Shown: positions 1,672 to 59,914 of the stretch, one piece after another | Position numbering within the stretch: position 1 is the first letter of the stretch | How the letters are laid out: each line of letters begins with the position of its first letter | Origin: a virus | Direction: 5' to 3' (one strand) | IMG/VR virus record: IMGVR_UViG_3300031469_000005 | Coordinates: 48,887 to 112,886 of that record | Length of the DNA: 64,000 bases | The notes under the pieces: model-generated | The model's input: the letters and a program-made list of their open reading frames with translations, nothing else | What the model was told of the DNA's origin: nothing | Databases searched by the model: none | Translations under genes and position numbers: made by a program

Positions 1672-2001
1672 TCAAACAAATGACACGATCCAATCGGCTC
1701 GATGCAATTCTTGGTTGACGTGGTACGTGTGATGCCTCAATTTTTGATTTGAGTTGATCGTCGTGATCTGAACGAAGACGTCATCACTCGGCTTTACGCT
1801 GACTCCAACCGATTCAAGGATACCCGTACACGATACAACTGATATGACGAGCTCCACCGGATATCGAGCCCAAAAATTTGTCGTTCCCGCCGTTCTGGTG
1901 ATGAACATTTTCTTGTTGAGAAGCATTGTTCCCGGCTTGATGTCGAGCCAGTGAATGCGTGTGTCAAGACTTTGCGACATGAGCTTCGTATGCACGGACA
2001 A
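1672..2001 (-). CDS. small LxPG(D) SH3/KOW-like family protein
   Basis: WLDIKPGTMLL...LVISVV. Confidence 0.5.
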   Translation of the reverse strand: MSVHTKLMSQSLDTRIHWLDIKPGTMLLNKKMFITRTAGTTNFWARYPVELVISVVSCTGILESVGVSVKPSDDVFVQITTINSNQKLRHHTYHVNQELHRADWIVSFV

Positions 2002-3343
2002 CTTGCGGATCTACATCACATTCTTCCCGCCACCTTTTAAAAACGGGAAATCTTACTTTGAGATCGGGTGTCAAAAATTGACCCTTAATTTCCATGATCT
2101 TCCCATAATATGTCTCGGGGCCAACGAGCTGAAATTCAGCACGTTGAGCATCCTTCCAACCACCACCGCATCTCGTGGTCACACCGTCCTTCGAGAGGCC
2201 GATGAAGCCCCCGAATTGACCTTCGCGCTTCGTGTTGGTATGTCCTTGGTACCAACCGACGACCACCAACTCGTGAGTGGTCACGGGCTTGAACTTTCGA
2301 ATTGCCTTCGAACGTTCGAACACGTACGGAGAATAGAGATCCTTGAGCATGACACCCTCGAATCCCGCTTCGAGACTTTCGAAGAAGAACTCAAGCAGCT
2401 CGGGCTCGTTCGAGATGATCTTACCTTCAACGGCCACGATGTTGGGGTGATTCAAGGCGGCGACGATTGTTTTCACGTTCGAGATGCGTTCACCGAACCA
2501 CGTTCCACAGAGTTGACTCGACCATTCGGTGATCGTCATCGTGTCGAACACGTTGATCTTGATCTGGCTGTCATCCTTCAGATTCTTGCTCGAAAGCAGA
2601 ACGCTTGCAGACATCTCCCAGTTATCGCACATTGCTTCGCAATCGAGGACGAAGTTATCGAACTTCGACGCTTCAAGAACCTTCTTGATCGTGGGGAGGG
2701 TATCGAATTGCTTCCCGTTGCGGGAGAACATTTCAACGACACCATCTTTCTTGATGACGACGCACCGGAAGCCGTCGATCTTACGGTCAGCGTAGACGGG
2801 GTACGAGATTCGCTCGTTGATCTTCACATCGTAGCCGCGTGGGCTGTCGTGATTCTCCACGACCTTCGCCTCGAGAGGTTCCGCGAGAGATACCGCGAAC
2901 TTCTTCACCAGACCCGGCCAGAACTTCTCGACAAGGTTGTCCGAAACGCCGCAGCGCATGTTCCTGAGCAGGATTCGGTGACACCATTTTTGTTCGAGTT
3001 CGAGCATTTCAGCGAAACTGTTCACGACTGCATCCTTCGCAGCATTCCCCGAAAGTTCTCGAACGTTGAGACGATCCAGCAAGTCAATGAACTTTGAAAT
3101 TTCGCGATCCGATTCCTGCGAAAGATACGCATCGACATCATCAATACCGTCGCAGTAACGTGATGCAGAACCCGGAGCGGAGGGCATCTTGAACTTCACC
3201 ACACCGAAGTTCGCAAACGGGTCGCCCACGATCTGGAAGATCCGCTTCAGAAGCTCGTTGTTCGCGTGTTGCTCGAGAATTGCTTCCTTCGCAAGACGCG
3301 AGTTGTCAGCTTCGAGGGCTTCGAGAATGTCTACTACGTTCAT
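1964..3343 (-). CDS. lig: ATP-dependent DNA ligase (phage replicative type)
   Basis: KIDG motif I, LDCE, VFD, EGVMLK, KFK and RFPVFKRWR motif VI, plus T4 gp30-like N-terminus (SRLAKEAIL). Confidence 0.95.
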   Translation of the reverse strand: MNVVDILEALEADNSRLAKEAILEQHANNELLKRIFQIVGDPFANFGVVKFKMPSAPGSASRYCDGIDDVDAYLSQESDREISKFIDLLDRLNVRELSGNAAKDAVVNSFAEMLELEQKWCHRILLRNMRCGVSDNLVEKFWPGLVKKFAVSLAEPLEAKVVENHDSPRGYDVKINERISYPVYADRKIDGFRCVVIKKDGVVEMFSRNGKQFDTLPTIKKVLEASKFDNFVLDCEAMCDNWEMSASVLLSSKNLKDDSQIKINVFDTMTITEWSSQLCGTWFGERISNVKTIVAALNHPNIVAVEGKIISNEPELLEFFFESLEAGFEGVMLKDLYSPYVFERSKAIRKFKPVTTHELVVVGWYQGHTNTKREGQFGGFIGLSKDGVTTRCGGGWKDAQRAEFQLVGPETYYGKIMEIKGQFLTPDLKVRFPVFKRWREECDVDPQVVRAYEAHVAKS

Positions 3344-3349
3344 GTGTTG

Positions 3350-3378
3350 ATCCTATCATCTTTCGTTGAAGAGAACAC
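3350..3378 (-). promoter_or_regulatory. recurrent phage promoter GTGTTC-N17-TAGGAT
   Basis: ATG of the ligase lies 6 nt downstream of the -10 hexamer. Confidence 0.75.
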
Positions 3379-3670
3379 CTAAAATCTCAACGAGTTCGCA
3401 CGTAATCGATCGCGTACCAGTCGATCGTCGATGATCGTGATCGCTGCGGGATTAAGAGTTTTAATGTGGTACATTGCGATCGGATTTTCTGAACCCCCAC
3501 CCCAAAGAACGCAGATCGTTTGACCGTCATTTGCAATGACGAGACCCGACACGACGTGTATGTTCTTCTTAGTTGGACCGTTGTAAGGTACAGATCGTGG
3601 ACCGCGATTGTCGAACAATAGCGAAGTTCCCCGGCAAAAGGTTCTTAGTGGTTAGTGGTTTGACGTTGTC
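3379..3670 (-). pseudogene. LxPG family protein with +1 frameshift at a G4 run
   Basis: NLLPG in one frame, LFDNRG...GLVIANDG in the +1 frame. Confidence 0.45.
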
Positions 3671-4001
3671 AATCATCGTTCATTTTCGATTCTGAACATG
3701 CGATTTTAACGATCTGTTTTTCGTCAAGTTTCTTTTGGTTGATCACGAAGTCGCAATTGATGTGTCCGACGGCCATGAAAACGATGATCTCCCAATTCGC
3801 TGGAACCGTCTTAACAACCCAAGATTCCAAAGCGAAATGAAAGGCACTTCTCGGGTGACCGATCGTTGACCAGGTCTTGCCTTTCTTTGACCACCTTGGT
3901 GAACCAATACCATCATTCAGAAAAAGGCCCGTGGACCGATCTCGAACCTTGAACGAACACGCAAATTTAGGTGGTTGTTCTTGCCGTGACATTGAATTCA
4001 T
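3669..4001 (-). CDS. phage hypothetical protein (WSKKGKTW motif)
   Basis: ORF track. Confidence 0.6.
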   Translation of the reverse strand: MNSMSRQEQPPKFACSFKVRDRSTGLFLNDGIGSPRWSKKGKTWSTIGHPRSAFHFALESWVVKTVPANWEIIVFMAVGHINCDFVINQKKLDEKQIVKIACSESKMNDD

Positions 4002-4209
4002 TACGATTCTTGTAAATTTGTTTCTCGATGAGACCGTTCGAGATCGTGGTAGCGAGAACTGCTTGTCGATTGGCTGAACACCTGACGATGCTAATGATCA
4101 TTCTAATCTTTGGAACCACGGTATCATCACCGTAATTGACGGGTGCACGATAGACATGATCTACGATCATATCACCCGGTCGAAGCTCATGAAATGATAT
4201 CAGATTCAT
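3967..4209 (-). CDS. small LxPGD family protein
   Basis: FHELRPGDMIV...MIISIV. Confidence 0.55.
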   Translation of the reverse strand: MNLISFHELRPGDMIVDHVYRAPVNYGDDTVVPKIRMIISIVRCSANRQAVLATTISNGLIEKQIYKNRNEFNVTARTTT

Positions 4210-4216
4210 ACATGAC

Positions 4217-4240: not shown

Positions 4241-4274
4241 CCACCAACCTAAACGACTCTCAACAACTTATGAA

Positions 4275-5450
4275 CTAAGATTGGTTAGTAAAAATACTCG
4301 GGATGTTCGGTACAACCCCGATCCCAGCCTCCCCGGCGGGGACGCCGAAGACATCCAGGACCAATTCTGCGCACCACTTGTGGACCGCAACCGAAAGGGA
4401 GAGGTTATCGATTCCCTTCGCGGTCATCTCGGTCCAGAACTTGATCCGAAGCTCATGAGGAAGATCCTTCATGAACGCCTGGATGTTCTTTCCCTGCTTC
4501 TCGGTGAGATCGGTCATTCCCGTGGTGTTGCTGTGGGCAACAACCTTGTCGATGAGCTCGTTCCAGAGATCCTGGGTGGTACCGTTTCCCGTGTTGTTCA
4601 ACTTCTTCTGAACCTTCTTCAAGGTATAGGAATTCAACACATCCTCGGCCGAGATCTGGCGGTCGATCGTCTTGACGTAGCTGCGGAACTTCAGCGCGGC
4701 CTCCATGCCGAGGTAACCGATGCAGGTGTTCAGGAATCTGCTATCATCGGGATCCTCGATCAGGCCGTTCTTCTTGAAGGCCAGGTCGACGAACTCCCAG
4801 GATCGACGTGAGGGTGCGACATCCGAGGGATTTGCCTTGTCCTTGGGGGTGTCGAGCCACACCTCATTCGTGCGGATGAAGTCCACGATGTTGGCGTGGA
4901 TTCGTTGCTTCCCCGTCTTCTCGTCCGTTGCCTGTGCCCAATCCATCCAGTCGGAAACGGAGGGGGTCAGATCGACCACGAAGAAGCGATCCAGAAGGGC
5001 GGGATCCATTTCGTTCACCGTGTACTGCGCCGAGGTGTTCACCGCCGCGACCACCATCGTCTCGGGGTGCAACTTTCGACCGGCAAGTTCTCGATCCAGA
5101 ACGATCTGGAAAGCAGCCTGCATGATCTCGGTGTTCGCCCGGTTCATCTCGTCGAGGAACAACAGGCAAGGGGATTCGCATGCCTTGTTGAACCATTCCA
5201 TGGGATTCCACCGGGTGACGTTTCCGTCCGTCGAGGGAAGACCCAGCATGTCACCGTCGGTCATCTGCGATAGACGTTGATCGATTACTTCACGTTCGAT
5301 ACCATCGATCTTCTGACGAAGCTTTGCAAGCAATCGTACGACCTGGCTCTTTCCCATACCGTGGTCCGCCCGAAGCAACAGGCTGGTCTCCACTGGCAGC
5401 GAGGTCGCAACCTCGAGAAACGACTTGATGTTCATTGCTGCGTTAGACAT
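4275..5450 (-). CDS. MoxR-like AAA+ ATPase
   Basis: Walker A variant ADHGMGKS, Walker B LFLDEMNRA, AAVN sensor, DPALLDRF, PSRRSWE. Confidence 0.9.
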   Translation of the reverse strand: MSNAAMNIKSFLEVATSLPVETSLLLRADHGMGKSQVVRLLAKLRQKIDGIEREVIDQRLSQMTDGDMLGLPSTDGNVTRWNPMEWFNKACESPCLLFLDEMNRANTEIMQAAFQIVLDRELAGRKLHPETMVVAAVNTSAQYTVNEMDPALLDRFFVVDLTPSVSDWMDWAQATDEKTGKQRIHANIVDFIRTNEVWLDTPKDKANPSDVAPSRRSWEFVDLAFKKNGLIEDPDDSRFLNTCIGYLGMEAALKFRSYVKTIDRQISAEDVLNSYTLKKVQKKLNNTGNGTTQDLWNELIDKVVAHSNTTGMTDLTEKQGKNIQAFMKDLPHELRIKFWTEMTAKGIDNLSLSVAVHKWCAELVLDVFGVPAGEAGIGVVPNIPSIFTNQS

Positions 5451-6690: not shown

Positions 6691-7467
6691 TTATACGAAT
6701 TGACCCTTTTTGAAGAGACCGGTTTCCTCGAGACCGAGGACGAACGTCTTACCGCTGCACCCGAACCGATTCTTCCTGTTCGAGAAGATCCTCTCACCCC
6801 AGGTCTCGGAACGCTTGTCGAGATCGATGTAGAGGTGAAGGTGCATGTCAAGCATGTGCTTCACAGAATTCTTCCCCGCGAACTCCCCGCCCTTAGTAAC
6901 CTGACCGACGAACAAGGCAATGACGTTCGTACGTTGCTTCACGAACTCGGTGATCTGCTTCGCAACCCTGACGTGGGTGTTCCCATTCATTCCACCGTCA
7001 GCGTACTTCCCATCGTTCATGCATTGCAAGGAATCGATGAGCATGAACACCTTCTTGTTCGGATTCTTATCCGAAAGTGCCGCAGTGTACTCGATGAGCT
7101 TGGGTGTCAAGGGTTCCTGTCCCACCATGAAACCGCTCTTCAACTTGAGGCGTTCACGAGTTAAACCGACCTGGTACAGCGATTCCTCAACCGTGTTGAA
7201 GAGGGCAATGTGACCCGTGCTAGTGATTGAATCAGCCAGTTGCAACATGAAGGTGGTTTTACCACCGCCCGGAGAACCCGTGATCATCCCGCAGGTGGTC
7301 GGAGTGAAACCAAATCCGCCGACGCATTCATCGACCCACGGGATTCCGCACGACACCTTTTCCTTGATATGCGTAGGAACGTTGATGTCGAGAACGTTGG
7401 AACCTAGCTCGAACTCCTGAATCGGCTCAAAATCGACGAAATTATCATTCTTGGATGACCTTGCCAT
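6691..7467 (-). CDS. RadA/Sms-like RecA-family ATPase (short form)
   Basis: GSPGGGKT, EES, IDSLQ, GQVTKGG, KNRFG motif. No Zn finger or Lon domain. GAGGA SD before ATG 7467. Confidence 0.85.
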   Translation of the reverse strand: MARSSKNDNFVDFEPIQEFELGSNVLDINVPTHIKEKVSCGIPWVDECVGGFGFTPTTCGMITGSPGGGKTTFMLQLADSITSTGHIALFNTVEESLYQVGLTRERLKLKSGFMVGQEPLTPKLIEYTAALSDKNPNKKVFMLIDSLQCMNDGKYADGGMNGNTHVRVAKQITEFVKQRTNVIALFVGQVTKGGEFAGKNSVKHMLDMHLHLYIDLDKRSETWGERIFSNRKNRFGCSGKTFVLGLEETGLFKKGQFV

Positions 7468-7489
7468 TGAATTCCTCGGGTGAAAGAGA

Positions 7490-7591
7490 ATCTTATCACA
7501 GTTTCCCAGAATGAACAACAAAAAGGAAAATAGCAAAGGATTTCGTGGATGATGGTGTTTTGTTGTTCATTTGTGTTTCGTATGATATGAT
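7490..7591. promoter_or_regulatory. back-to-back divergent promoters (TTGTTC-N17-TAAGAT on -, TTGTTC-N17-TATGAT on +)
   Basis: inverted repeat atgaacaacaaaa / ttttgttgttcat. Confidence 0.7.
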
Positions 7592-7918: not shown

Positions 7919-9241
7919 ATGTTCACCTCAGTTCAATCGACATACAACATCCAAAAGCACACGATTCATCTCATGAGCGATGTTCCGTTCTATGCGGAAA
8001 TCTCGAGGCACGTTGCAAAGATGCCGACCGATCAGATTCCGACGATGGCTGTCGCCTACGATCCTCGAACTGAGGATCTTTGCATGGGTTACAATCCCAA
8101 ATTCTGTGAAAAGTTGACCGACTGGCAAGTGAGGAACGTGCTCATCCATGAGTTCCTCCATCTTATCTTCGGACATCTCTCCGCTCGTCGTAAGACTCCA
8201 CCGAAGTTGTGGAACGTTGCAACCGATTGCGCAATCAACTCGCTGATCATTGATGATGCTCAAAAGTTCAAGAGCGGTTACGCAAACGTTGATCGCAATC
8301 GCCCGCTTCCTCCGGGTTGTTTGATTCCCGGTGAGTGGCCCACGATGCCCGATGGTCGTGAATTGAACGAGGAAGAAAAGAAGGGTGCAACCCTGGGTCA
8401 CATCCTTTCGAAGCTGCCTCCGATGAAATCGTCCGAGTTCTACTACTTCAAGATCCTCGAAGAGGCCGAGAAGATGGGCAAGGGGGCCGAGACGGGCGAG
8501 GGTGGTGAGGGATTCGACTTTGATTCCTTCGATGATCACGGTTTCTGGGATTCGGTACCCGATGACAAGAAAGATCTCGTTGAATCGAAGATCAAGGACA
8601 TGCTGGGAAAGGCGGTCAAGAACGCCGATACTTCCGACGGTTGGGGAAACATCTCGGCCGAGCTTCGGGACGACATTCGTCGATCGGTCACCAGGATCGT
8701 TGACTGGAAAGCGGTCCTTCGGCAATTCACGGGTTCCTTGATTCGAGGCAAGAAGCGAACCTCCATCAAGAGGATCAACCGAAGGTTCCCGTACATTCAT
8801 GCGGGTCAAACGAAGGGTTACACCGCACGGTTGTTGGTTTGCATTGATCAATCGGGATCGGTTGATGATGGGATGCTTCAGATGTTCTTCTCCGAACTGA
8901 GAAGCCTCAACAAGAATGTCGAGATCGATTACCTTCCCTTCGATTGCGAGGCTTACGACAAGGACATCGTCACCTGGAATCGAGGTCGGTGTCCCGATGC
9001 GAAAAGGACTCGGGCCGGTGGTACAGACTTTTCGGCTCCTACCAGAGTAGCAAATGATCCGAAGAATCGTGGACGTTGGGATGGGGTTCTGATCTTTACT
9101 GATGGTGAATGTTCGCAACCGATTCCAAGCCGACTGAAACGGGGATGGATTATTGGGCAGGGGCAAAAGTTGCTCTTCAACACAACGGAAACTGTAATCT
9201 CTCTCAACGATGGAAAAATCAATACCGGAGCTTGGCGCTGA
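7919..9241 (+). CDS. metallopeptidase-like + VWA domain protein (MoxR partner)
   Basis: HEFLH, WNVATDCAIN, DDH, MIDAS DQSGS, GGTDF, FTDG. Confidence 0.9.
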   Translation: MFTSVQSTYNIQKHTIHLMSDVPFYAEISRHVAKMPTDQIPTMAVAYDPRTEDLCMGYNPKFCEKLTDWQVRNVLIHEFLHLIFGHLSARRKTPPKLWNVATDCAINSLIIDDAQKFKSGYANVDRNRPLPPGCLIPGEWPTMPDGRELNEEEKKGATLGHILSKLPPMKSSEFYYFKILEEAEKMGKGAETGEGGEGFDFDSFDDHGFWDSVPDDKKDLVESKIKDMLGKAVKNADTSDGWGNISAELRDDIRRSVTRIVDWKAVLRQFTGSLIRGKKRTSIKRINRRFPYIHAGQTKGYTARLLVCIDQSGSVDDGMLQMFFSELRSLNKNVEIDYLPFDCEAYDKDIVTWNRGRCPDAKRTRAGGTDFSAPTRVANDPKNRGRWDGVLIFTDGECSQPIPSRLKRGWIIGQGQKLLFNTTETVISLNDGKINTGAWR

Positions 9242-9311
9242 AGATTGCCTTCTAGGGGGAAATGCTAACTTATTGATCATTCGTGACGGCAAACAAATTT
9301 ATCCCTAACGA

Positions 9312-9340
9312 GTGTTTCTTTTCTGAATTGGTGATATGAT
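9312..9340 (+). promoter_or_regulatory. recurrent promoter GTGTTT-N17-TATGAT
   Basis: ATG 9346 is 5 nt downstream. Confidence 0.75.
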
Positions 9341-13402: not shown

Positions 13403-14200
13403 ATGAGTTCCTCATACACAAACGTGAGTCGGATAAAGTTCCTCTCAAAAGGAGGCGTTGCAGGTGAGATTCCTGTCGTGAACGAGAAGTTTGATATTCC
13501 CATTCAAGAGATCCGTATCGGCGATTTGATCATTGATCACAACAACCATATTTTCTTATTGATCGCAAGTCAACTTGAATTCGACGGATCGATGCTGATG
13601 ACGTTTGCATACAATTCTTCCAGATGGAATCGTGATTCACAACTTGAATCGAAACGATTCTTGGTATTTACTTTACCGTTTTTTCAACTTTTTACGGAGC
13701 TAAATTCTGGTCAAGGGACGAACAACATGTTTGATTTTGTGTGTGTAGGATTCTTTTTGGGCATCGCAGTGACGTACTTCTCAATTCGCTACGCTCCCCG
13801 ATTGAGGTCGGGCGGTCATTCGTGTGGAACATGTAGGGTTGACAAGACGCTTTCAAAGGTTTCCTATTCAATCTGTGCAACGTTCAGAGATGGTAACAAG
13901 CAAATTTACCACAACGTTGGAGCACATGAATTTCTTGTTCAACGGAACGGCGGAAGATCGGATTTCGTATCAAAAAACGTCTCAGGCGTCTATGATACGA
14001 ATGGAAAGCTCGTAGTTAAAGTTCCGTTCAATTTCATCAAAGAATGGTGGTTCTTGAGCCAAAAAGATCACTTTTCGAAGCTTGAAACGGAAGATGTGAA
14101 TCGAATTCTTGATTTCATCGTCACTGATGCGATCTGTTGGATCAATGCTCCGCCCGACTTGAAGTTGTTGATTGCAAAACTCAAAGAAGACAAAAAATGA
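13403..14200 (+). CDS. probably two genes (IGD-family protein, then a membrane-anchored protein from ~13727) fused by a T6 frameshift
   Basis: QEIRIGDLII...LLIAS, then MFDFVCVGFFLGIAV hydrophobic start. Confidence 0.45.
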   Translation: MSSSYTNVSRIKFLSKGGVAGEIPVVNEKFDIPIQEIRIGDLIIDHNNHIFLLIASQLEFDGSMLMTFAYNSSRWNRDSQLESKRFLVFTLPFFQLFTELNSGQGTNNMFDFVCVGFFLGIAVTYFSIRYAPRLRSGGHSCGTCRVDKTLSKVSYSICATFRDGNKQIYHNVGAHEFLVQRNGGRSDFVSKNVSGVYDTNGKLVVKVPFNFIKEWWFLSQKDHFSKLETEDVNRILDFIVTDAICWINAPPDLKLLIAKLKEDKK

Positions 14201-18270: not shown

Positions 18271-18504
18271 ATGATGTATTCAGAATTGCTCCCGGGCGAT
18301 CTTTTAATTCTTTCTACGAAAGAACATCATAACTCGTGGTTCGTAATTTCAAAACATGTCAATGACGTTCGAAAAGATACGATGAAACTCAATGTCTTGT
18401 CATCAAGATCGAAATTGATCGTTTGGAACGCAGTTTTTGCTCGTATTGATGATACGGTACGTATTTTTCGTGAAGGAAAGTGTGTTTTCGACCCTGAGAA
18501 GTGA
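18271..18504 (+). CDS. small LLPGD family protein
   Basis: YSELLPGDLLIL..WFVIS..VRIFREGKCVF. Confidence 0.6.
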   Translation: MMYSELLPGDLLILSTKEHHNSWFVISKHVNDVRKDTMKLNVLSSRSKLIVWNAVFARIDDTVRIFREGKCVFDPEK

Positions 18505-18510
18505 TAGGAT
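18482..18510 (+). promoter_or_regulatory. recurrent promoter GTGTTT-N17-TAGGAT
   Basis: ATG 18516 is 5 nt downstream. Confidence 0.75.
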
Positions 18511-18515: not shown

Positions 18516-19394
18516 ATGCACATCAAGAGTTACTCTGGCCCAAAGGTTCAGATTCAGCCCGAGGAGCTCGCTGCGTACGATAACGGTCGATGGTCGTGCG
18601 AAGAAAAGCATGACGGCCATTTCTGCGAGATAACGACCGACGATCAGGGGACGATCGTATCGTTGATCGGCAGATCCGGGAAGACGTTCACGAATTCGAA
18701 CGTTCAAGAATTTACGAACTTGAACATCGGAATTCCCAACTCCGTATTCGTCAGCGAGCTCGAAGCGGGTACCGAAGCATCTCGTAGGAAGAACGATGCT
18801 CTCGGCCATTCTCGATTGATCGTGTTTGACGTTGTGAGGCTTTTGGGTCAGTCAACCGTTGACCTACCTAACTCACAACGTCGAGCGCTTCTCGAGCTTG
18901 CATTCACGAAGGAGAATAAGTTCGTGAAGCTCGTTAAGAGAATCACCACGGGTTTCAAGGATTTCTACGAAACGCTAATGAGTGAAGGTGCTGAAGGTAT
19001 CGTGCTCAAGCGAAATGATGCACGATACCTTCATGGCAAGACGGACAACATGATCCGGTGCAAGAAACACCGTTACGTTGATTACGTCGTCATGTCGATT
19101 GCAAAAAGCAAAGGTGGGAGTCCCAACTTTCAGGTAGGACTTTTCATCGAGGGAAAGTTGCAGCGAGTCGCAACGATAAAGAACCTTCCCAATGATTACA
19201 TTCGCCGTTACCTTGAGCTCGATTTCGGTCAAGATTGGATGACGGAAGATCTGCAAGTATTCGTTGGAAAGGTCGTCGAATGCAAGGGAGCAGAGGTTCA
19301 TGATTCAGGAGCTCTTCGTCATGGACATCTCGAACGAGTTCGAGATGACAAGACGGTCGATGAATGCACTCTTGAGGCAGCGTTGAACTCATGA
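18516..19394 (+). CDS. minimal ATP-dependent DNA ligase (LigC/LigD-ligase-like)
   Basis: EEKHDG, GRSGK, VSEL, VFDV, QRRALLE, EGIVLK, LRHGHLERVRDDK. Confidence 0.88.
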   Translation: MHIKSYSGPKVQIQPEELAAYDNGRWSCEEKHDGHFCEITTDDQGTIVSLIGRSGKTFTNSNVQEFTNLNIGIPNSVFVSELEAGTEASRRKNDALGHSRLIVFDVVRLLGQSTVDLPNSQRRALLELAFTKENKFVKLVKRITTGFKDFYETLMSEGAEGIVLKRNDARYLHGKTDNMIRCKKHRYVDYVVMSIAKSKGGSPNFQVGLFIEGKLQRVATIKNLPNDYIRRYLELDFGQDWMTEDLQVFVGKVVECKGAEVHDSGALRHGHLERVRDDKTVDECTLEAALNS

Positions 19395-19699
19395 ATGCCA
19401 TCGGATGGGGAATCGAATGGAAGAACGTCCTCGTTCAAAAGGACGGCCACCCAGCACGATCCTGGATCTACGTCGAAGCTCGCGTACTGAAGCCAGGGGA
19501 CATGATCGGTCTAAATCGTGATGAGAAATTGAACTTCCACATGATCGTTTCGGTTGAACAAGATGGAATTAAACACGGTTCTGTCGTTTTAGACGCACGA
19601 ATCAAACTTACGTTCTTGAATCCCTCGATGGGACTAACAATACTGTATCAGGCACCTTTCCACAACGTTAAAAGATTACAAACGAATTCCAACATATGA
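19391..19699 (+). CDS. small LKPGD family protein
   Basis: ARVLKPGDMIG..MIVSVE. Confidence 0.55.
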   Translation: MNAIGWGIEWKNVLVQKDGHPARSWIYVEARVLKPGDMIGLNRDEKLNFHMIVSVEQDGIKHGSVVLDARIKLTFLNPSMGLTILYQAPFHNVKRLQTNSNI

Positions 19700-21093: not shown

Positions 21094-21252
21094 ATGAAAA
21101 AGAAGAACGTCAAACCTCGAAATCACGAGCTCGCGGTCGTCCTAAAGAATGATCCTGCGCGGCTCAAGATTCGTACGGTTGAAAGCGAGCAAAAGAAGCT
21201 CATCAAGTCACGTTCAAGACGAAAATCATTGAATCAAGACATTGAGGAATAA
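21094..21252 (+). CDS. 52-aa basic protein
   Basis: open frame MKKKNVKPRNHELAVVLKNDPARLKIR..., below the track cutoff. Confidence 0.5.
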   Translation: MKKKNVKPRNHELAVVLKNDPARLKIRTVESEQKKLIKSRSRRKSLNQDIEE

Positions 21253-21294
21253 TGAGTGTTTTCGTCCGTAAACTATGTTAAGATTGATCTACAC

Positions 21295-21582
21295 ATGATG
21301 AATTCCGCCCCTCCCTCGAAAAAGAAAAGCATGGGCATCGTCCTGGGAGATCACCTTTCCGATGCTGAGGAAATGCTTCCCACAAGGCGTGATACGTTGC
21401 CAAGCGTTCTCGATGGCGTTGAAGGTTCAGCGACGGTAATCGATCTCGATTCGATCCAGTTCAACGATCCCGTCAAATACGCAGAGGTTTCTCGAATCGT
21501 TCATGAGCTCGCGAACGTGCTTGATGGTCGGATCATCTTGAAACACAAGGGTTCAATCGTTCGAGAAATTGGTTCTCGATGA
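21295..21582 (+). CDS. hypothetical protein
   Basis: ORF track 21256..21582. Promoter occupies 21256-21284. Confidence 0.55.
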   Translation: MMNSAPPSKKKSMGIVLGDHLSDAEEMLPTRRDTLPSVLDGVEGSATVIDLDSIQFNDPVKYAEVSRIVHELANVLDGRIILKHKGSIVREIGSR

Positions 21583-21845
21583 AATTGAATCCCGGCGACC
21601 TCGTAAAGACGAGCCTTGTCGCAACGCACATGTCACGTAACACAATTCAATTGACGAATGTTCCGTCATTGCAGATCAAAAATGGACCAAGAACGCCGGG
21701 TACAGCGTTAGTTGTCACGGGTTTATTGGGTCAAAATGACACCGCTATCGTCATTTCAACGACCAACGATTCGCGTTACGCCTTCATCGTTTGTCCGGGT
21801 GGCGTGGGATACGTGTACGGTGCAATGTTGACGTTGGTCGGTTAA
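21579..21845 (+). CDS. small LNPGD SH3-like protein
   Basis: MKLNPGDLVK..AIVIS. Confidence 0.6.
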   Translation: MKLNPGDLVKTSLVATHMSRNTIQLTNVPSLQIKNGPRTPGTALVVTGLLGQNDTAIVISTTNDSRYAFIVCPGGVGYVYGAMLTLVG

Positions 21846-22691: not shown

Positions 22692-23110
22692 CAATGAAAG
22701 AGATCAATTCATTTTCGAACGAATTTGCATTCCTTTCAAATTTCTACACGAGCGAAGTGGTGCTTGATGGTTCGTCGTACCCGACCGTCGAACACGCGTA
22801 CCAAGCTGCGAAAACGTTTGATTCGGTTCAAAGAAACGAAATTCGTTCTGCAAAAACGCCCGGAATCGCAAAGAAACTTGGCCGAAAGGTCACGCTTCGT
22901 GATGATTGGGAACAAGAGAAGATCTCAGTGATGAGAAATCTTCTCGAACAAAAGTTTTCACAGCCCGATCTTTTGCTCGCGTTGCAATCAACGAAGGGTT
23001 TCGATCTCGTCGAAGGTAATTGGTGGGGTGATGTGTTCTGGGGTGTGTGTCGCGGCGTTGGACAAAACTGGCTCGGAATTCTCTTGATGGAAATTCGAGA
23101 CATGAAATGA
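22688..23110 (+). CDS. NADAR (YbiA-like) hydrolase
   Basis: FLSNFY, YPTVEHAYQAAK, AKKLGR, KF, LVEGN.W.D.FWG, GQNWLG. Confidence 0.93.
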   Translation: MTMKEINSFSNEFAFLSNFYTSEVVLDGSSYPTVEHAYQAAKTFDSVQRNEIRSAKTPGIAKKLGRKVTLRDDWEQEKISVMRNLLEQKFSQPDLLLALQSTKGFDLVEGNWWGDVFWGVCRGVGQNWLGILLMEIRDMK

Positions 23111-23313
23111 AACAGATCAAAATCAAAAATCTTTTTCCTGGTGATTTGATATTGTCGTCGTCGGCACCTGAAACACGCTGCGTGGTAATTGCAAATCTTC
23201 GTCATATACGAAAAGGTGAAGAAATTTCGGATCAAAGGAAGATAATCTATCTTCAAAATTTCGAGGTGAAACAATTCATTGCTCATGTAGGATCACTTGC
23301 AGATATCGCGTAA
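23107..23313 (+). CDS. small LFPGD family protein
   Basis: IKNLFPGDLIL..CVVIAN. Confidence 0.55.
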   Translation: MKQIKIKNLFPGDLILSSSAPETRCVVIANLRHIRKGEEISDQRKIIYLQNFEVKQFIAHVGSLADIA

Positions 23314-25042: not shown

Positions 25043-25315
25043 TTGGGTTTCCCCAATTCAATGAAGCGAATTAATTCTACGACAACGTCGGTAAAGGTGG
25101 CTGATTTGTTACCGGGTGACAATGTTTATTACAGAACTTATTTATCTGTGATAAGTTTTCTTGTCATTAGCTGCGGCGAGAAAGTTCTAATCCTTCAGAA
25201 AAAGGATAACAAATCACCCGAATTCGCAGAAATAGCCATGAGCAACGAAGGTATAATTCGTACTGATGCGTACATCGTACGAAACGGTGAACTCATTTTC
25301 AAAGGCAGATCGTGA
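25043..25315 (+). CDS. small LLPGD family protein
   Basis: ADLLPGD..FLVIS..YIVRNGELIF. Confidence 0.6.
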   Translation: MGFPNSMKRINSTTTSVKVADLLPGDNVYYRTYLSVISFLVISCGEKVLILQKKDNKSPEFAEIAMSNEGIIRTDAYIVRNGELIFKGRS

Positions 25316-25557
25316 AGTACGGTCAACTTCGTCCGGGTGATATGTTTGTTTACGAAACATCCGGACCAGGTCGACAACTACGATCAGTTCTCGTGATTGG
25401 TAATCACGATGATGATCATCACGAAGTTTTGATGGTGAGATCACCCGGTTGCGTATGTAGCGTCATTCGATGGATACTATCGTTCGATAGATTGATCACG
25501 TCAGACGTTAAGGTGATCCACCTTACCAAAGGTCACGAACGAATGGGTCAGTCATGA
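25312..25557 (+). CDS. small LRPGD family protein
   Basis: YGQLRPGDMFV..LVIGN. Confidence 0.6.
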   Translation: MKYGQLRPGDMFVYETSGPGRQLRSVLVIGNHDDDHHEVLMVRSPGCVCSVIRWILSFDRLITSDVKVIHLTKGHERMGQS

Positions 25558-31422: not shown

Positions 31423-31690
31423 TTATGATAAAATATCATGATTCATGCCATTGAACACTTTAAATGAATGGTAGTTTTCGAAGAAAATGGCTTCCTTTAA
31501 ATTACCATGCGGAGAACGAACGTTTAATGGACCCGTTCTTAGAAATTGAAGTGATGTTCCACCGTTCACTTGTTTTTGTGAAACAACTAATCGATACAAT
31601 GTATCACCCCGCTCCCCAGTAAAGAACGATGACATCTCCCGGAACGATCCCGTCAGCACGTTTGTAATACCATTGGGGGTACACTTGATT
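31423..31690 (-). pseudogene. PGD family protein with +1 frameshift at a G4 run
   Basis: IVPGDVIVLYW joins ERGDTLYRLVVS if one G is removed. Confidence 0.45.
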
Positions 31691-31700: not shown

Positions 31701-32138
31701 TCAAGGCGCTTGAACACGTTTTCTCCACGTCCAGTAAAGCATGAGAGCACCATCGCGTGGTGGATCACCACCGAGATTTCCTTCCACAAAGATCTCCCAA
31801 GCTCTAGATGCGTACTCACCGACCCCAGGGAGCTCGACGATGTTCTTCCACTCGTCTTTCATGTATTCCATTGCAAGGTTACGAAGTGTCTTCGTTCGTC
31901 GGTTCTTGAACCCGAGCGGAGCGATCATTTCACGAAGAAAGCTTTCATCACCCTCGATCAAGGCTTCGGGTGTAGGAAATGTTCTCATGAAACTTGGAAA
32001 CACTTTCTCAACCTGCTTTCGACGTGTACAATTCAACATGACGCATGACACGAGAATGAACCATCGATCCGGCCACAAAGATTCCTGAATAAGCCCGTAA
32101 GGGCTCATCAATGGTTGTTCAGTGGATTCTGTTCCCAT
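31701..32138 (-). CDS. HhH-GPD DNA glycosylase, MBD4-like
   Basis: SPYGLIQE..W.LLV....LN.T, PLG, HhH LPGVGEYA, catalytic-position D in PPRDGAL. Confidence 0.85.
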   Translation of the reverse strand: MGTESTEQPLMSPYGLIQESLWPDRWFILVSCVMLNCTRRKQVEKVFPSFMRTFPTPEALIEGDESFLREMIAPLGFKNRRTKTLRNLAMEYMKDEWKNIVELPGVGEYASRAWEIFVEGNLGGDPPRDGALMLYWTWRKRVQAP

Positions 32139-32415
32139 TTCGAAAGATCCTGTAAGAACGAGCGATCGACTTGTTGTATTTTCGTACCTCGTGAGGTGAG
32201 ATTCTTGAATATTGAAAGTCTCCAGGTTCGAATATCTCGTCTAGAATGAATGACCACAAGTAAATTCTACTTGCGAATAAGCACAGGAATGATTGATCGA
32301 CGGGTGATTCATTCGTGAGGTAGAGAAATTGAAAATCTCCCGAATGGTATGAAGAAGGTGCCTTGTACGACACAAGATCGCCGGGTTGAACCTCATCCCA
32401 TCGTTTGATCTTCAT
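32119..32415 (-). CDS. small QPGD family protein
   Basis: WDEVQPGDLV..YRIFRNG. Confidence 0.6.
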   Translation of the reverse strand: MKIKRWDEVQPGDLVSYKAPSSYHSGDFQFLYLTNESPVDQSFLCLFASRIYLWSFILDEIFEPGDFQYSRISPHEVRKYNKSIARSYRIFRNGNRIH

Positions 32416-34138: not shown

Positions 34139-34411
34139 TCAAACAACGCTTAACAGTCGCTTGATCACTTCGAACAACACAGCTTCATTCGCTCGATCTT
34201 GCTTGATAAGTTCAAAATCATAGCAATCAGTTCGAGAACTATCAGGCCACAAAACATTGAATTTCCCCGTCGTATTGTCAATACAGACGATCAAACCAAG
34301 ACCATCACGAAAAGATGAATGAAGATATCGTTTAGGATCAAACTTAACGATATCACCTGGTAACAATGAATTCATATCATGAATCGTATCATGCATTTCA
34401 ATGATAAACAC
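34139..34411 (-). CDS. small LLPGD SH3-like protein
   Basis: SLLPGDIVKF..GLIVCID..VLW. Confidence 0.55.
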   Translation of the reverse strand: MFIIEMHDTIHDMNSLLPGDIVKFDPKRYLHSSFRDGLGLIVCIDNTTGKFNVLWPDSSRTDCYDFELIKQDRANEAVLFEVIKRLLSVV

Positions 34412-38852: not shown

Positions 38853-39463
38853 ATTTTCGTGTAGGAATTATCGCACTGAGCGCGAAGCCACCCCATGCAG
38901 GTCACTGGTCATTGATCAACATCGCGGCGAAAGAATGCGATGAGGTCATGTTGTTCGTTTCTCTGAATGATCGTAAACGACCTAACGAGGTCGAGATCTA
39001 CGGAAACGACATGGAAACGATCTGGAAGGACTACATGGAACCTTCGTTACCAAAGAACGTTGAAGTGATTTACGTCTCCAACGAAACACCTGTTCGAAAG
39101 GTCTACGAGTTCCTGGGACTCAAAAAAGAAAATGGGACCGACGACACGTTCGTGATCTACTCCGATCCAGCGGATCTGAACAAATCATTCTCAACTCAAC
39201 AACTCGAAAAGTACCTGAACGATCTGTACGTAAGCGGTAAAATTTCTCTCGAACCAGTGAGTCGTTCAGAAACAGTCGACATCAGCGGAACGAAGATGAG
39301 AAAGTTCCTTGAAACGGGAGCGAAGGAAGAATTCATTGAGAACTTGCCGGATATCATCCAATCGCGCGGCGAGAGCATTTGGAATCAGTTGCAAATTAGC
39401 ATCGCTACGAAGTCAAAATCGATCGTTCCCAAGAAGAACAAGGTGTTTCGTGTCAAACGGTGA
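38849..39463 (+). CDS. cytidyltransferase-like (HIGH-family) protein
   Basis: KPPHAGH, ISGTKMR. Confidence 0.8.
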   Translation: MNFRVGIIALSAKPPHAGHWSLINIAAKECDEVMLFVSLNDRKRPNEVEIYGNDMETIWKDYMEPSLPKNVEVIYVSNETPVRKVYEFLGLKKENGTDDTFVIYSDPADLNKSFSTQQLEKYLNDLYVSGKISLEPVSRSETVDISGTKMRKFLETGAKEEFIENLPDIIQSRGESIWNQLQISIATKSKSIVPKKNKVFRVKR

Positions 39464-39689
39464 CAAATTTTATGGTACAACGATATTTCCGGGCGATCTT
39501 GTAATTCTTGAAGATGACAGTATGGACGGGAAATGTCTTCGTTTTGTCATAACAAATGATATCTCAGCAAGGTACGTCACTGTCATGAATTTCAATACAA
39601 ATCACATGTACCAGATTTGGTACGAATCGCATTCAATTCGTGACATAGAACGAATCATTCCAGTAAAGTGTACTTCGTCAAACTTCTGA
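39430..39689 (+). CDS. small IFPGD family protein (start uncertain)
   Basis: TIFPGDLVIL..FVITND. Confidence 0.5.
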
Positions 39690-41705: not shown

Positions 41706-41717
41706 TACGATTGATCT

Positions 41718-42347: not shown

Positions 42348-43035
42348 AATTCTGTTGCGTGATTCGAACTCGATGCTCGAAAGCAAGAGCGACGACGATG
42401 ATGATGTTGAAAACTTTCTCAAACTCGTAGAGAAAGAAAAAGCGAGAACGTCGAAGCAACCGCAGATCGACAAGCTCGATGATGCGATCGTCCTCGACAA
42501 GGACGGGAACCCTCAATTCCTGCTCAAGTTGGGTGACTCGATCATCATCGAACGTTACACTGACTACGGTTCTCAACCTCGTTGGTTCGACACGAAGGTT
42601 TACGAGATCAAGAACATTGACACATTGACAGGCGCTGTTCGCCTGTTCGATCTCGAGAACAAGAACTACGCTGCCACGAACTACATCACTGGGTTCACCA
42701 ACAACTTGCATCGATTCAAGATCGCCCCTTCGAAGGCGAACAAGTTGAAGAGGCGGGGGAACAAGAAGGTTCAGCAAAAGTACGTTGCTGATGAACCTGT
42801 CAAAACAACAGCTTCTTCATCGAAGAAACCGCGTAAGATGGCGAACGGATTACGAAGGGTTTACGATTCTCGAGGAACCATCCATACGCGAATTACGGGA
42901 GTTGCATACGGCCCTTCGGGATCGACGAAAGCGAAGGACGGTGATCGCCTCACGATGGTTCTTGAAGTGAACGTTTTGAAAGTGACAGATACAGCGTCGG
43001 GTTGGACTGAATCATGGAAAGAAATAAACCTCTGA
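42316..43035 (+). CDS. two-domain hypothetical protein
   Basis: N-domain like 31117..31422, C-domain like the end of 62984..64000. Confidence 0.65.
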   Translation: MTSPESKSLAEILLRDSNSMLESKSDDDDDVENFLKLVEKEKARTSKQPQIDKLDDAIVLDKDGNPQFLLKLGDSIIIERYTDYGSQPRWFDTKVYEIKNIDTLTGAVRLFDLENKNYAATNYITGFTNNLHRFKIAPSKANKLKRRGNKKVQQKYVADEPVKTTASSSKKPRKMANGLRRVYDSRGTIHTRITGVAYGPSGSTKAKDGDRLTMVLEVNVLKVTDTASGWTESWKEINL

Positions 43036-43230
43036 GGTGGAATGATCTTCGTCCCGGTGATGTTTATTAACAATTCATACAGTGACAACTACTTTTGGTT
43101 AGCATTGAACGATGACGGTGTCATCGTGGATGATTCCATTCACGTTGAATTTGATTGTAAGATAAGTCGACACTCTCATTCGATAATTCGAACTCATTCG
43201 ATAATTCGAAACGGGAAAATGATATGGTGA
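43030..43230 (+). pseudogene. LRPGD family protein with +1 frameshift
   Basis: WNDLRPGDV then +1 frame INNSY...IIRNGKMIW. Confidence 0.5.
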
Positions 43231-43236: not shown

Positions 43237-43467
43237 ATGATGAAATGGTCAGAGTTGTTACCGGGCGACATTTACATTGACAAGGATGTTCGTAACAACA
43301 CTCGATTCGTCATCACCAATCCTACTCGAGATGATTCGATGCATGGATTCATTTGGCTGACATGGGATCAAACGTTCAAAAACGTCGTACACGATACCGT
43401 TTATGATGATTTAATGATCAACCACTATACGTACTGTGTAATTAGAAAAGGAAAGCAAATACTATGA
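43237..43467 (+). CDS. small LLPGD family protein
   Basis: KWSELLPGDIYI..FVITN..VIRKGKQIL. Confidence 0.65.
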   Translation: MMKWSELLPGDIYIDKDVRNNTRFVITNPTRDDSMHGFIWLTWDQTFKNVVHDTVYDDLMINHYTYCVIRKGKQIL

Positions 43468-43778: not shown

Positions 43779-43901
43779 ATGCCTTTCCATTTCTGCATGG
43801 ATGAACTTTTGATGATCATGGCTGCGATCCCGTTCGTAGGGGCGGGATTTCGTAAGCTACACGATTGGTGGCACGTGAAATTCAAGCACAAGAAGCATTG
43901 A
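43779..43901 (+). CDS. 40-aa membrane peptide with basic C-terminus
   Basis: MPFHFCMDELLMIMAAIPFVGAGFRKLHDWWHVKFKHKKH. Confidence 0.45.
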   Translation: MPFHFCMDELLMIMAAIPFVGAGFRKLHDWWHVKFKHKKH

Positions 43902-45024: not shown

Positions 45025-45050
45025 TCTCGAATTGTACAAAATTATTCGTA

Positions 45051-57199: not shown

Positions 57200-57236
57200 A
57201 TATGAATTTTCTTTACGAACTTGCGAGTGTGTTCTG

Positions 57237-57920
57237 ATGGCAAGGTTATTTCTGGGACCGAGAGAAATAGCGTTCGTGAACGATATTACCAAGGAACTTA
57301 TTTCCGACGTCAACGACCAAAATATTTTTCTGTATACAATTTCAGAAAAAATGACTCTCGCTCACGACGTTTACCATGAAAGTCAACACAAGGCATTCAA
57401 CAATCCCGTAAAACTTGCTTGTTTTGTTGACGCGATCCTACAGGAAGATACAAAGATCGATCAATTCGGTATTGATTCAACGTACAAGGTTGAATGCTAC
57501 GTTCAGTACAAGGATCTCGTTGATCGCGGCATCGAGATCAACGTTGGTGATTTCTTTTCTTTCAGCGACATATTTTTCGAGATCACGCAAATGAAGGCGA
57601 TCAAGAACATATGGGGTCAAGCTGAACACAAGAACGGTTTAGTTTTCGTTGGAACGAAGGCTCGTGATGATCAATTCAAAGCATTGCTACACGGACCAAC
57701 CGATATCAAGTACACCGATGAGGACGCGGTTCAAAAGAAGTTCGTGCAGGAGCGCGGAGAGAGCGAGAATTCCGAAGGTCTCACGGGAGATACAAGAGAA
57801 TTGCGTGAAGTCCTCGGAAAACCGATCACTGGACCGAAAGAAGTTTCAGAACGAGGTGCCGTACTGGATGATTCTCACTACAAGTCTAGTTTTTACGGCG
57901 ATTCTGACGACGATCAGTAG
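57237..57920 (+). CDS. neck/head-closure-like protein (T4 gp14-like)
   Basis: KELI..V..Q, VYHES..K.F, FG, VGDF..F...FFEI, context. Confidence 0.55.
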   Translation: MARLFLGPREIAFVNDITKELISDVNDQNIFLYTISEKMTLAHDVYHESQHKAFNNPVKLACFVDAILQEDTKIDQFGIDSTYKVECYVQYKDLVDRGIEINVGDFFSFSDIFFEITQMKAIKNIWGQAEHKNGLVFVGTKARDDQFKALLHGPTDIKYTDEDAVQKKFVQERGESENSEGLTGDTRELREVLGKPITGPKEVSERGAVLDDSHYKSSFYGDSDDDQ

Positions 57921-58019
57921 TACACGTAACGCTTACAATTTTACAATTCAATTGAACCCTTTCCAATAAAAAGATACGTGTACATGTTCGCATGACAATG
58001 TCATCAGCATTAATCGTTT

Positions 58020-59009
58020 TCACGTACCACTTTCAATCAATGATGCACGAGTGACGTTCACGAATTCTGGATCGATCTTCAGATCCATCAAGTTATCAAC
58101 GCCTTGGTACGACATCCCACTTCTCACACCTTGCATCAGTTCATCGATCACCGACTCAGTCGAACCCTTGAATGGAACGAACTTGGAAACACCTTCAACG
58201 TGATGATTCTTCAAGGTTGATGAACCAGAGTACTGCTTGTACTTCTTTCCTTCGAATTCAATCACCTCTCCAGGCGATGAATCAGTTCCCGCTAAAATAC
58301 TTCCTAGCATCACAGCGTGAGAAAAACAGAGCGCCTTCACAATGTCTCCTGACGTTCGGAACCCGCCATCGGCTATGATCGTTGGTTTCTTGCCCGCTTT
58401 CGTTTCGAACGATGACCAGACATTATCTAATGCTGTCAATTGTGGAACTCCATTACCAGTCTTGATTCGAGTCGTGCACAACGATCCCGGACCAACACCG
58501 ATCTTGACCACATCCGCTCCCGCGTTGACAAGATCCCAGGCACCCTCGGGAGTACAAACATTTCCTGCAATCAACAGTATGTTCGGAAATTCCCCCGCTA
58601 TCATGTTCGTCATTTCTAAACATGCTTCCATGTGACCGTGTGCAACGTCAATGCAAACGATACGTGCGTTCGTCTCATTGAGCAAGAACCTCGATTCGAC
58701 AACATCGTTGACTCCGATCGAAATTCCAACATTGTTCGGATGAACCTTGGAAGCGTACTCGTAATCACGAACCTGTTGACTTGTACTCGTGAACCTATGC
58801 AATAAACCAAGACCTCCAAGTTTAGCGATGTTCATCGCCATATCAGGTCCCGTGACCGTTTTCATGTTAGATGAAACGAGAGGAACTGAAAGAAATATTC
58901 CTTTCCCCAGATCAACGTTTGTGTTAACGAGCGATCTGGATCTTATCGTGCTATGTTTTGGCACGAGCAAGACATCATCGAACGTGAATGCGGGTGAAAT
59001 TCGAATCAT
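58020..59009 (-). CDS. GMP reductase / IMP dehydrogenase family (no CBS domains)
   Basis: [43 protein letters not shown]. Confidence 0.92.
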
Positions 59010-59221
59010 TCTATCGATTTTATCTCATGCATCAACCAATGTTCATCAATTTGATTATCATACAGTATAACGGGAAAAACACGGAGCGCGCTCGAGGTGC
59101 ATTCGTACGCTATTATTTTTTGATGACCGTCATTCGATACGATCAAGTACTGAACCTTTTTGTACTGGCTCAATTTGTTGCTGGTTAACAGAACACCCGG
59201 TTTGAGTTCGCTGAACTTCAT
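59006..59221 (-). CDS. small LKPG family protein
   Basis: MKFSELKPGVLL..LIVSND. Confidence 0.55.
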   Translation of the reverse strand: MKFSELKPGVLLTSNKLSQYKKVQYLIVSNDGHQKIIAYECTSSALRVFPVILYDNQIDEHWLMHEIKSIE

Positions 59222-59679
59222 GGAGTTACTGAACGACGTTTCTCGTAATCTCTGCACCATACCTTTGCAGCCTGTTGAGCACGATTCGGAAATCGAACCT
59301 CTGTTTCAACACCGTTCACACCGTTCACAACGGTAACGGTAACAACTGGAAGGTTGATTGTAATGTTTTTCATGATCTCGTAAGTAACCTCAATCGCAGT
59401 GAACTTCTCGGGCAACGTGACAGTACGCCGTTCAAAGTTAGACACTTCCAAGCGACCCACTGCGATCTTACGTGCCATCTTTTTATCGAAATTTTCCCGT
59501 GAATTCACGACAGAGATTGCAAACAAAACCTGACGATCTTGTTCATCCTTGACACCGGTGACGTAGGATGCGATGCATCCAATCGGATCGCCACGATGTC
59601 CCGCGTTTGAATTCTTGACTCGAATGTACGTGATCTTGTAGTTGTTATTCATGTTTTCTCTTTCTTTTAAGGTTTCCAC
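59218..59679 (-). CDS. phage hypothetical protein (FDKKMARKIAVGRL)
   Basis: ORF track. Confidence 0.65.
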   Translation of the reverse strand: METLKERENMNNNYKITYIRVKNSNAGHRGDPIGCIASYVTGVKDEQDRQVLFAISVVNSRENFDKKMARKIAVGRLEVSNFERRTVTLPEKFTAIEVTYEIMKNITINLPVVTVTVVNGVNGVETEVRFPNRAQQAAKVWCRDYEKRRSVTP

Positions 59680-59731
59680 TTATGTTCTGTTAATTTTTGA
59701 CCTGCACGAAAAATGTCGAAATGGTTGTTGA

Positions 59732-59914
59732 TCAATCCCAGATTCCGATCGTACGATCGTTGTTTTTTGTTCTTGCCAAACGAAATATCGAATTTTCCCA
59801 AAAAAATGTCGTGATTTTATCATCGTCGACACATACAACGATTTCAATCGTTCTGTATATTCCGAACGTGCAAATCATATCACCCGGAATAATTTGGCTC
59901 CAGAATTGGATCAT
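59732..59914 (-). CDS. small IIPGD family protein
   Basis: WSQIIPGDMIC..IVVCVD. Confidence 0.55.
   Translation of the reverse strand: MIQFWSQIIPGDMICTFGIYRTIEIVVCVDDDKITTFFWENSIFRLARTKNNDRTIGIWD

Follow-up and report, generated by a model that had tools for sequence, protein, structure and literature searches.

The window analysed here is the whole 64,000-nt stretch that forms the last 64 kb (positions 48,887–112,886) of the 112,886-base IMG/VR record IMGVR_UViG_3300031469_000005, which belongs to an uncultured soil jumbo phage and is 33% complete according to CheckV. It codes for two tail-sheath paralogs of about 1000 amino acids (aa), GroEL, an ATP-dependent DNA ligase, Ku, a LigD-like ligase, NADAR, a sugar epimerase, a class I FBPase, a 5'-3' exonuclease, PEPCK and a GMP-reductase-like protein. 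Packed between such genes lie small open reading frames (ORFs) with products of 60–109 aa that begin with a common L-x-P-G-D signature. We refer to them as type A (Table 1) and analyse them here as a candidate family of paralogs.

The full signature, aromatic-x-E/D-L-x-P-G-D-h-h (h, hydrophobic), is matched 14 times when a regular expression is run over the six-frame translation. In 100 dinucleotide-preserving shuffles, which define the chance expectation for the motifs, 0.22 ± 0.46 matches occur with a maximum of 2, and the excess within this one genome is about 60-fold. In almost every copy the motif begins 5–10 residues past a plausible start codon. A second, C-terminal motif, h-h-R-[DNEK]-G-x-x-h, is found six times with 0.25 matches expected, and in all six a stop codon is only a few residues away. 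A hidden Markov model (HMM) seeded with 19 motif-bearing ORFs and iterated at a cut-off of E < 0.01 converges on 21 ORFs of the full record, 13 in the window and 8 upstream of it. Two of these were recovered though they had not been seeds, no reversed or shuffled copy of all 1442 ORFs is matched, and a profile search of the phage's own record reproduces the 21 members, with 22 places matched in all. Leave-one-out searches return 12 of the 21 copies at E < 0.01. A first-pass annotation, made from the letters alone, had listed about 25 such paralogs, often ending in R-x-G-x-x-I, and had suggested an iterative HMM count as a check. The shared N-terminal motif is borne out, and the HMM count gives 21 copies on the contig and none in the controls. 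The listed ORFs 25043 and 39430 correspond to the copies given here as 25061 and 39450. Of the listed examples, 13 type A copies, one copy of a second type (type B), three broken copies and one remnant stand, whereas about one third could not be demonstrated; the C-terminal ending is real, but it is limited to the six matches.

Taken as a group, the motif-less parts of the copies outrank 86 other small genes of the phage (median rank 8 of 87, p = 1.2e-6), and 16 of the 21 fall in the top quarter of this ranking. Pairwise identity among type A copies is saturated at 15–30%, so that the copies are old, loops of variable length separate the conserved strands, and the predicted isoelectric points (pI) range from 4.5 to 9.5. 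The codon-usage score per codon is 0.051 for type A versus 0.107 for other small genes (p = 1e-5), as would fit accessory genes under weak constraint or at low expression.

Table 1. Type A copies, related and decayed copies, and the accessory island. Positions are those of the window; contig positions are those of the full record.
Feature	Position	Strand	Support	Context
Type A, LxPGT variant	1672..1980	-	HMM non-seed, 45 bits; leave-one-out E 0.065	start overlaps end of DNA ligase gene 1964-3343
Type A	3967..4209	-	HMM; leave-one-out E 0.004	downstream of MoxR-like ATPase gene 4275-5450
Type A	18271..18504	+	best leave-one-out, E 2e-6	between Ku and LigD-like ligase genes
Type A, longer N-terminus	19391..19699	+	HMM; leave-one-out E 0.009	ATGA overlap with ligase gene 18516-19394
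Type A	23107..23313	+	HMM; leave-one-out E 0.014	overlaps end of NADAR gene 22571-23110
Type A, first of tandem pair	25061..25315	+	HMM; weak leave-one-out E 0.66; C-terminal IVRNGxxI	past epimerase gene
Type A, second of tandem pair	25312..25557	+	HMM; leave-one-out E 2e-4	4-nt overlap with first of pair
Type A	32119..32415	-	HMM; leave-one-out E 0.033; C-terminal IFRNGxxI	
Type A	34139..34375	-	HMM; weak leave-one-out E 1.9; marginal Pfam match SH3-C_UBE2O, E 9e-4	
Type A	39450..39689	+	HMM; leave-one-out E 0.0075	overlaps end of gene 38849-39463
Type A	43237..43467	+	HMM; leave-one-out E 1e-4; C-terminal VIRKGxxI	intact partner of broken upstream copy
Type A, LKPGV variant	59006..59221	-	HMM; leave-one-out E 5e-5	in 3.85-kb island; directly upstream of GMP-reductase-like gene
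Type A, short (60 aa)	59732..59914	-	HMM; leave-one-out E 0.03	in 3.85-kb island
Type A, eight copies	contig 1666, 2882, 5576, 7007, 7230, 19319, 27325, 48467		HMM	upstream of window
Type B (PGDLV ... AIVIS ... GY)	21579..21845	+	G003-family profile E 3e-6; hhalign 98.4% to type B alignment	
Frame-broken type A	43011..43230	+	motif in one frame, stop at T-run; remainder, ending IIRNGxxI, in another frame	
Frame-broken copy	3379..3651	-	LLPGNFAIV in one frame, GLVIAN...CVLW body in another	
Probable decayed copy	31423..31690	-	IVPGDVIVL then stop; hVVS/LQFL body in another frame; weak profile support	
Bare C-terminal remnant (LLIIRDGKQIYP, then stop)	9270..9308	+	one of six tail-regex matches versus 0.25 expected	
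Borderline: N-terminal IGDLII barrel-like domain of 265-aa protein	13403..13650	+	hhalign 51% over 38 columns; HMM E ~5	
Lineage-specific accessory island, 3.85 kb	57921..61772	.	synteny with relatives	

Beyond the entries of Table 1, the ORFs at 20016, 37773, 26966 and 9603 are weak candidates, with hhalign values of 3–9% versus 0.1–0.7% for control ORFs. Those at 6378 and 9346/9642, as read, are not supported as members, with hhalign values at control level.

The fold was predicted for the copy at 18271–18504 with AlphaFold2 (AF2), from an alignment of 20 paralogs only. The model is all-beta with six strands, at a predicted local distance difference test score (pLDDT) of 93.1 and a predicted template modelling score of 0.78. 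The single-sequence model of this protein in the ESM Atlas reaches a pLDDT of 0.57, and the difference between 93 with paralogs and 0.57 without them indicates that the paralog alignment carries real information. The model has the 5–6 antiparallel strands over about 60–80 residues that characterize an SH3-like small beta-barrel. In structural searches with Foldseek and VIA-align, the best match is the SH3-like 2B subdomain of TraI (Z 6.9, root-mean-square deviation 2.6, 64 aligned residues), followed by domain I of EF-P (Z 5.9), CarD (Z 5.0) and Tudor (Z ~5), PWWP and FeoA domains. These values lie in the range labelled as a common arrangement and therefore speak to the fold class only, not to function. 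In the model, L-x-P-G-D-h-h would form a turn and the first strand, hVIS and hxVL would be core strands, and the tail h-h-R-N-G-x-x-h, where kept, would be the closing hairpin. By this confident prediction, each copy would adopt a small SH3/Tudor/KOW-like beta-barrel.

Sequence libraries add no name to this fold. No member matches the KOW profile PF00467 at E ≤ 1, and KOW structures occur only as mid-list structural neighbours. As a call of fold class, the SH3/KOW-like character first proposed for these proteins is supported. The SH3b models of Pfam (SH3_3 and related) match none of 21 type A and none of 38 type B sequences at E ≤ 1, and no PHROG family matches either type at E ≤ 0.01. Against Pfam as a whole, type A yields just two marginal single-member matches, both below gathering scores, and type B yields none. 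A PDB sequence profile search with type A gives chance-level matches only, the ESM Atlas returns only unnamed viral clusters below its reliability line, and in the literature we found no PGD or SH3-like multigene phage family described.

Relatives of the phage were collected through a tail-sheath alignment, which gave 80 IMG/VR loci, and the type A profile was run on the 5 closest and 4 more distant records. There is no match in these nine records, which include the complete 369,475-bp genome G003 with terminal repeats; relatives with 45–66% tail-sheath identity lack type A. A search of 1.84 billion representative proteins finds no more than two matches outside this phage, the short proteins P0017 and P0018, on contigs of 1.3–1.5 kb. 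Three large repeat proteins that the profile also matched were discarded as spurious PGD repeats or wrong-frame translations. A homologue search with the family alignment returned this phage's own proteins only.

The copies are accordingly not positionally fixed across relatives, and for two of them a filled and an empty site can be compared, as the first-pass annotation had suggested. In G001, G003 and G005 the block of the two sheath genes followed by genes for proteins of 441, 227 and 408 aa is contiguous, and G002 has a gap of 0.9 kb between the 227-aa and 408-aa genes, where this phage carries 3.85 kb. By synteny, the 3.85-kb island is a site that is filled in this phage and empty in G001, G003 and G005. 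It holds the copies 59006 and 59732, the GMP-reductase-like gene, two small ORFs and, at its edge, a DUF7487 paralog. The 227-aa gene (57237–57920) stands on the strand opposite to its neighbours and is co-oriented with them in G001, G002, G003 and G005, which indicates a local inversion beside the island. Four paralogs of this kind occur in the record, at window positions 43882–45039 and 60636–61748 and at contig positions 22323–23396 and 31051–31932. All four match one gene of G003, and the Pfam domain DUF7487 is carried by the two window paralogs. The one at 60636–61748 is the paralog at the island edge, and that at 43882–45039 adjoins the 43011/43237 pair.

In G003, which lacks type A, the pattern PGDLV ... 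ALVIA ... LGW marks 36 small ORFs, without a single control match. We refer to this pattern as type B. Twenty-nine of the 36 follow one another as ORFs of about 80–100 aa over 11.4 kb on the minus strand (86,746–98,113), and the array adjoins a homologue of the window gene 6691–7536. In the phage studied here the type B profile finds the window copy of Table 1 and a second one at contig 21143–21391; the distant relatives G006 and G007 have one and three copies. The AF2 model of type B (pLDDT 89.6) is an SH3b-type barrel. It matches the SH3 domain of the phiSM101 endolysin (4KRT) with Z 9.2 and NlpC/P60 SH3b, InlB and AtlE GW domains with Z of about 6.6–7.2, so that, in the model, the SH3b fold resemblance stands without family membership. 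Like SH3b/GW cell-wall-binding domains (Z 9.2 to 4KRT, ~6.9 to InlB/AtlE), type B has a Gly-Trp pair before the last strand. In contrast to them, it stands alone without a catalytic domain, and by eye no obvious N-terminal hydrophobic segment is seen in the translations. Type A differs further from these domains, as it lacks the GW pair and reaches Z of 4–7 to generic SH3-like barrels. Types A and B share their start motif, and their strands follow in collinear order.

All solid copies are co-oriented with local transcription, as had been proposed for most of them, and leave little room to the adjoining genes, so that stop and start codons often overlap. These neighbours include the genes for DNA ligase, the MoxR-like ATPase, Ku, the LigD-like ligase, NADAR, epimerase, exonuclease and GMP reductase. 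Most copies sit singly, as first described, but three tandem pairs exist (25061/25312, 43011/43237 and contig 7007/7230). Such packing could mean that each copy is a partner-specific subunit, translationally coupled to the adjoining enzyme as adaptor, clamp or chaperone. Copies 1672, 19391, 23107 and 39450 overlap the stop of an upstream enzyme gene, 34139 and 59006 directly precede one, and a small SH3-fold gene is conserved beside a jumbo-phage DNA polymerase (Iyer et al., PMC7824862). However, the homologues of ligase, NADAR, epimerase and exonuclease in G003 have no such neighbour by either profile, tandem pairs and copies beside unknown small ORFs do not fit, and gene junctions in this phage overlap as a rule, whatever the gene. 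We regard dedicated partnership with the neighbouring enzymes as improbable.

The contig has 21 occurrences of a promoter-like motif, GTGTT-N14/15-TGnTAnnnT, mostly 5–7 nt before a start codon (for example at 3350–3378, 9312–9340, 18482–18510 and 41683–41711), which implies very short leaders. No obvious Shine-Dalgarno sequence precedes the starts of the family. The likely start of the 34139 copy, ATG 34375, lies 7 nt after the motif at 34383–34411, which probably drives this copy. Overlap of copies with the next promoter had been described as frequent. Among intact copies this holds for one only, 18271, whose final codons overlap the motif at 18482–18510, but such motifs do lie at the ends of the broken copies and of the remnant. 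The copy 31423..31690 ends on the motif at 31430–31458, and the remnant 9270..9308 lies in the spacer past gene 7919–9241, directly before the motif at 9312–9340.

The earlier remark that several copies are broken holds for 43011 and 3379, more weakly for 31423, and for 9270..9308, which is very probably a true remnant of a family member. The broken copy 43011..43230 contains an internal 18-nt tandem duplication, and the body of 3379..3651 resembles type B, where it takes rank 3 by the motif-masked profile. For strain comparison we used the Logan contigs of the four best metatranscriptome runs, with coverage gaps ignored. The phage is near-clonal in these four soil samples, with three single-nucleotide polymorphisms and one indel over 20 kb. 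The contigs report no indel at the breaks at 43,0xx and 31,6xx, and they do show a difference of 1 nt at 38366. At this last position, where the ORFs 38054–38383 and 38373–38852 overlap, the contigs of all four runs have one base fewer; the two ORFs may be a single gene, or an indel may be present in the IMG contig. At 31650, three of the four runs differ by C>T, and the Gly just before the IVPGD motif of the decayed copy thereby becomes acidic, as in the family consensus at this position.

Dispersed, partly broken copies at gene boundaries, two of them in an island beside a DUF7487 paralog, are what a self-spreading mini-element could leave behind. This had been offered as one explanation, in which the copies are mobile DNA cassettes that insert between genes, like the MPMEs of mycobacteriophages or homing cassettes. 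MPMEs are near-identical DNA units of about 440 bp with inverted-repeat ends, and, like type A, they are small ORF-bearing units scattered between phage genes. Apart from the flanks that adjacent pairs have in common, however, an all-versus-all blastn of the 21 genes with 150-nt flanks finds only 15–21 nt of motif codons. Type A copies have no DNA identity and no terminal, inverted or flanking repeats, and do not qualify as MPMEs by this comparison. They encode plain barrels of 60–100 aa without a nuclease or transposase domain, and the contigs of the four runs contain no joints or alternative forms. We reject the mini-element because shared DNA and flanking repeats are missing, and consider it extremely improbable.

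From the evidence above, we consider it reasonably probable that the 13 window ORFs and the 8 upstream ones are real genes that form an orphan, lineage-specific paralog family of single-domain small barrels, partly decayed, with a putative role as binders. Several observations weigh against this interpretation. Most of the sequence signal is confined to the first ~16 residues, and the rest is significant only collectively, not per copy: once the motif is masked in a profile test, significance is lost for single copies and only 59006 ranks first. The low codon-usage score would also be compatible with a loss of function in some copies. The profile comparison between types A and B is limited to the motif (hhalign 59–67% over 11–13 columns), and their motif-masked cross-test is marginal (p = 0.039). 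There are no recent duplicates, with DNA similarity between copies restricted to motif codons, and among the four samples no copy is seen to be gained or lost.

The confinement of the signal bears on whether there is one family at all. The ORFs could be unrelated beta-barrel proteins that share a generic start of PGD and a hydrophobic strand, as found in KOW, Tudor, Hint and SH3b folds. The seeds were chosen by the motif, masked single copies go unrecognized, and the HMM also touches PGD repeat proteins and an intein Hint segment. The latter lies at contig 22069–22158 (KPGDLVLS..., E 0.003), and the weak match is a reminder that several small beta folds have such a start motif in common. Against a chance collection stand the constant distance of the motif from the start in ORFs of like size, the group-wise similarity of the post-motif parts, the six matches to a second motif at the C-terminus, the 60-fold motif excess in one genome, and the pLDDT of 93 that is reached only with the paralog alignment. 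We therefore judge a set of unrelated barrels to be quite unlikely.

The comparisons of types and of samples also limit what can be said on the origin and the pace of the family. Descent of type A from type B is no more than plausible, since the profile comparison stops at the motif and the masked test is marginal. The fast birth-and-death proposed by the first-pass annotation is supported on the side of death, by three broken copies and one remnant, but not on the side of fast birth; with no recent duplicates and no copy-number variation in four samples, turnover is not demonstrably fast. The family may have grown by tandem duplication, of which three pairs would remain, and the copies would then have been relocated to gene boundaries and accessory islands, with deep divergence and occasional decay. 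Type A may stem from an older, clade-wide SH3b-like minigene, represented by type B and amplified independently to 36 copies in one relative.

Known phage systems offer two further comparisons. The T4 set GoF/MotB.1/Frd.2 consists of early LSm-like proteins that are non-essential and for which RNA-related roles are suspected at most (2025, PMC12152347). As in type A, they are small accessory barrels of SH3/LSm type with 5–6 strands, and their paralogs have diverged too far for BLAST. The type A copies could be akin to this set, which they resemble in fold class, in range of size and in their setting as small accessory genes. In addition, the structures nearest to the T4 proteins are FeoA/IdeR-type SH3 barrels (PMC12152347), which are present in our match list, too. 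The T4 set, in contrast, has three copies versus at least 21 here, its proteins carry extra C-terminal domains, and the N-terminal LxPGD signature was not found in the T4 alignments obtained. For the two T4 proteins compared, hhalign gives no profile homology to type A (0.2% for GoF, 0.3% for MotB.1). The surface of type A is not consistently basic, as seen from the pI range, and wild-type GoF and MotB.1 had no RNA-stabilizing effect, which was seen for the GoF(D25Y) mutant only (PMC12152347). Kinship with the T4 set appears unlikely on this evidence. The second comparison is a zinc ribbon with about 35 copies in Bacillus phage G, a lineage-specific expansion (Iyer et al. 2021, PMC7824862). 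Here, too, tens of copies of a tiny domain occur in one jumbo-phage lineage, but the fold is another one, and the copies are clustered there and dispersed in the phage studied here.

Returning to the family reading, the copies would most likely be diversified accessory binders, as far as sequence and predicted fold can tell. This role fits because pI values spread from 4.5 to 9.5, loops are variable, codon fit is weak, some copies are broken and the family is absent from relatives. The copies would be individually dispensable small binders with diversified loops and surfaces, and each might have its own protein or RNA partner, from the host or from the phage, in host takeover, regulation or counter-defence. 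The first-pass annotation had proposed anti-defence factors or host adaptors. A bolder version seems to us unlikely. In it, a clade-wide SH3-type minigene would have been amplified independently in different lineages, as 36 copies mostly in one array in one relative and as more than 21 dispersed copies here, into evolvable libraries of binders of which each copy neutralizes or redirects a different host factor. If true, such libraries would be the phage-side counterpart of a diversified immune repertoire.

The phage itself is a member of a large environmental clade of jumbo phages from soil and freshwater, because its tail sheath has more than 2000 homologues at about 60–80% identity, on contigs of up to 357 kb. 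The nearest ones are 72–80% identical and lie on contigs of up to 76 kb. The top match of GroEL in an isolated phage is just 42% identical, and neither the sheath DNA (megablast) nor one family member (tblastn) is matched in the isolated-phage collection. Queries with GroEL, P0017 and P0018 returned no loci among viral contigs, and the LigD-like ligase returned none among metagenome contigs. DNA of the phage is present in 13 soil metatranscriptome runs from 2017, one of which (X1) has a contig of 174,695 nt. A stretch of about 55 nt at 38201–38259 matches X1 contigs of 81,838 and 24,222 nt at about 90%, and these have the same depth as the 174,695-nt contig. They are probably the rest of the phage genome, which would then comprise at least 280 kb, with a short repeat or paralogous segment in common. 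Gene 7919–9241, which precedes the remnant, is an HNH endonuclease by its PHROGs label; Pfam instead assigns a DUF2201 metallopeptidase and a VWA-like domain, and the gene looks like a partner of the MoxR-like ATPase gene 4275–5450.

Much of what is still unexplained in large phage genomes consists of small orphan genes. In this phage, about 20 hypothetical proteins reduce to a single family with a simple, confidently predicted fold, and thereby to one question, that of their binding targets. A related minigene has been amplified separately in the relative G003. If the copies are diversified binders of host factors, they would provide a compact natural series of scaffolds and a way to approach host takeover in a clade of jumbo phages that is abundant in soil and freshwater.

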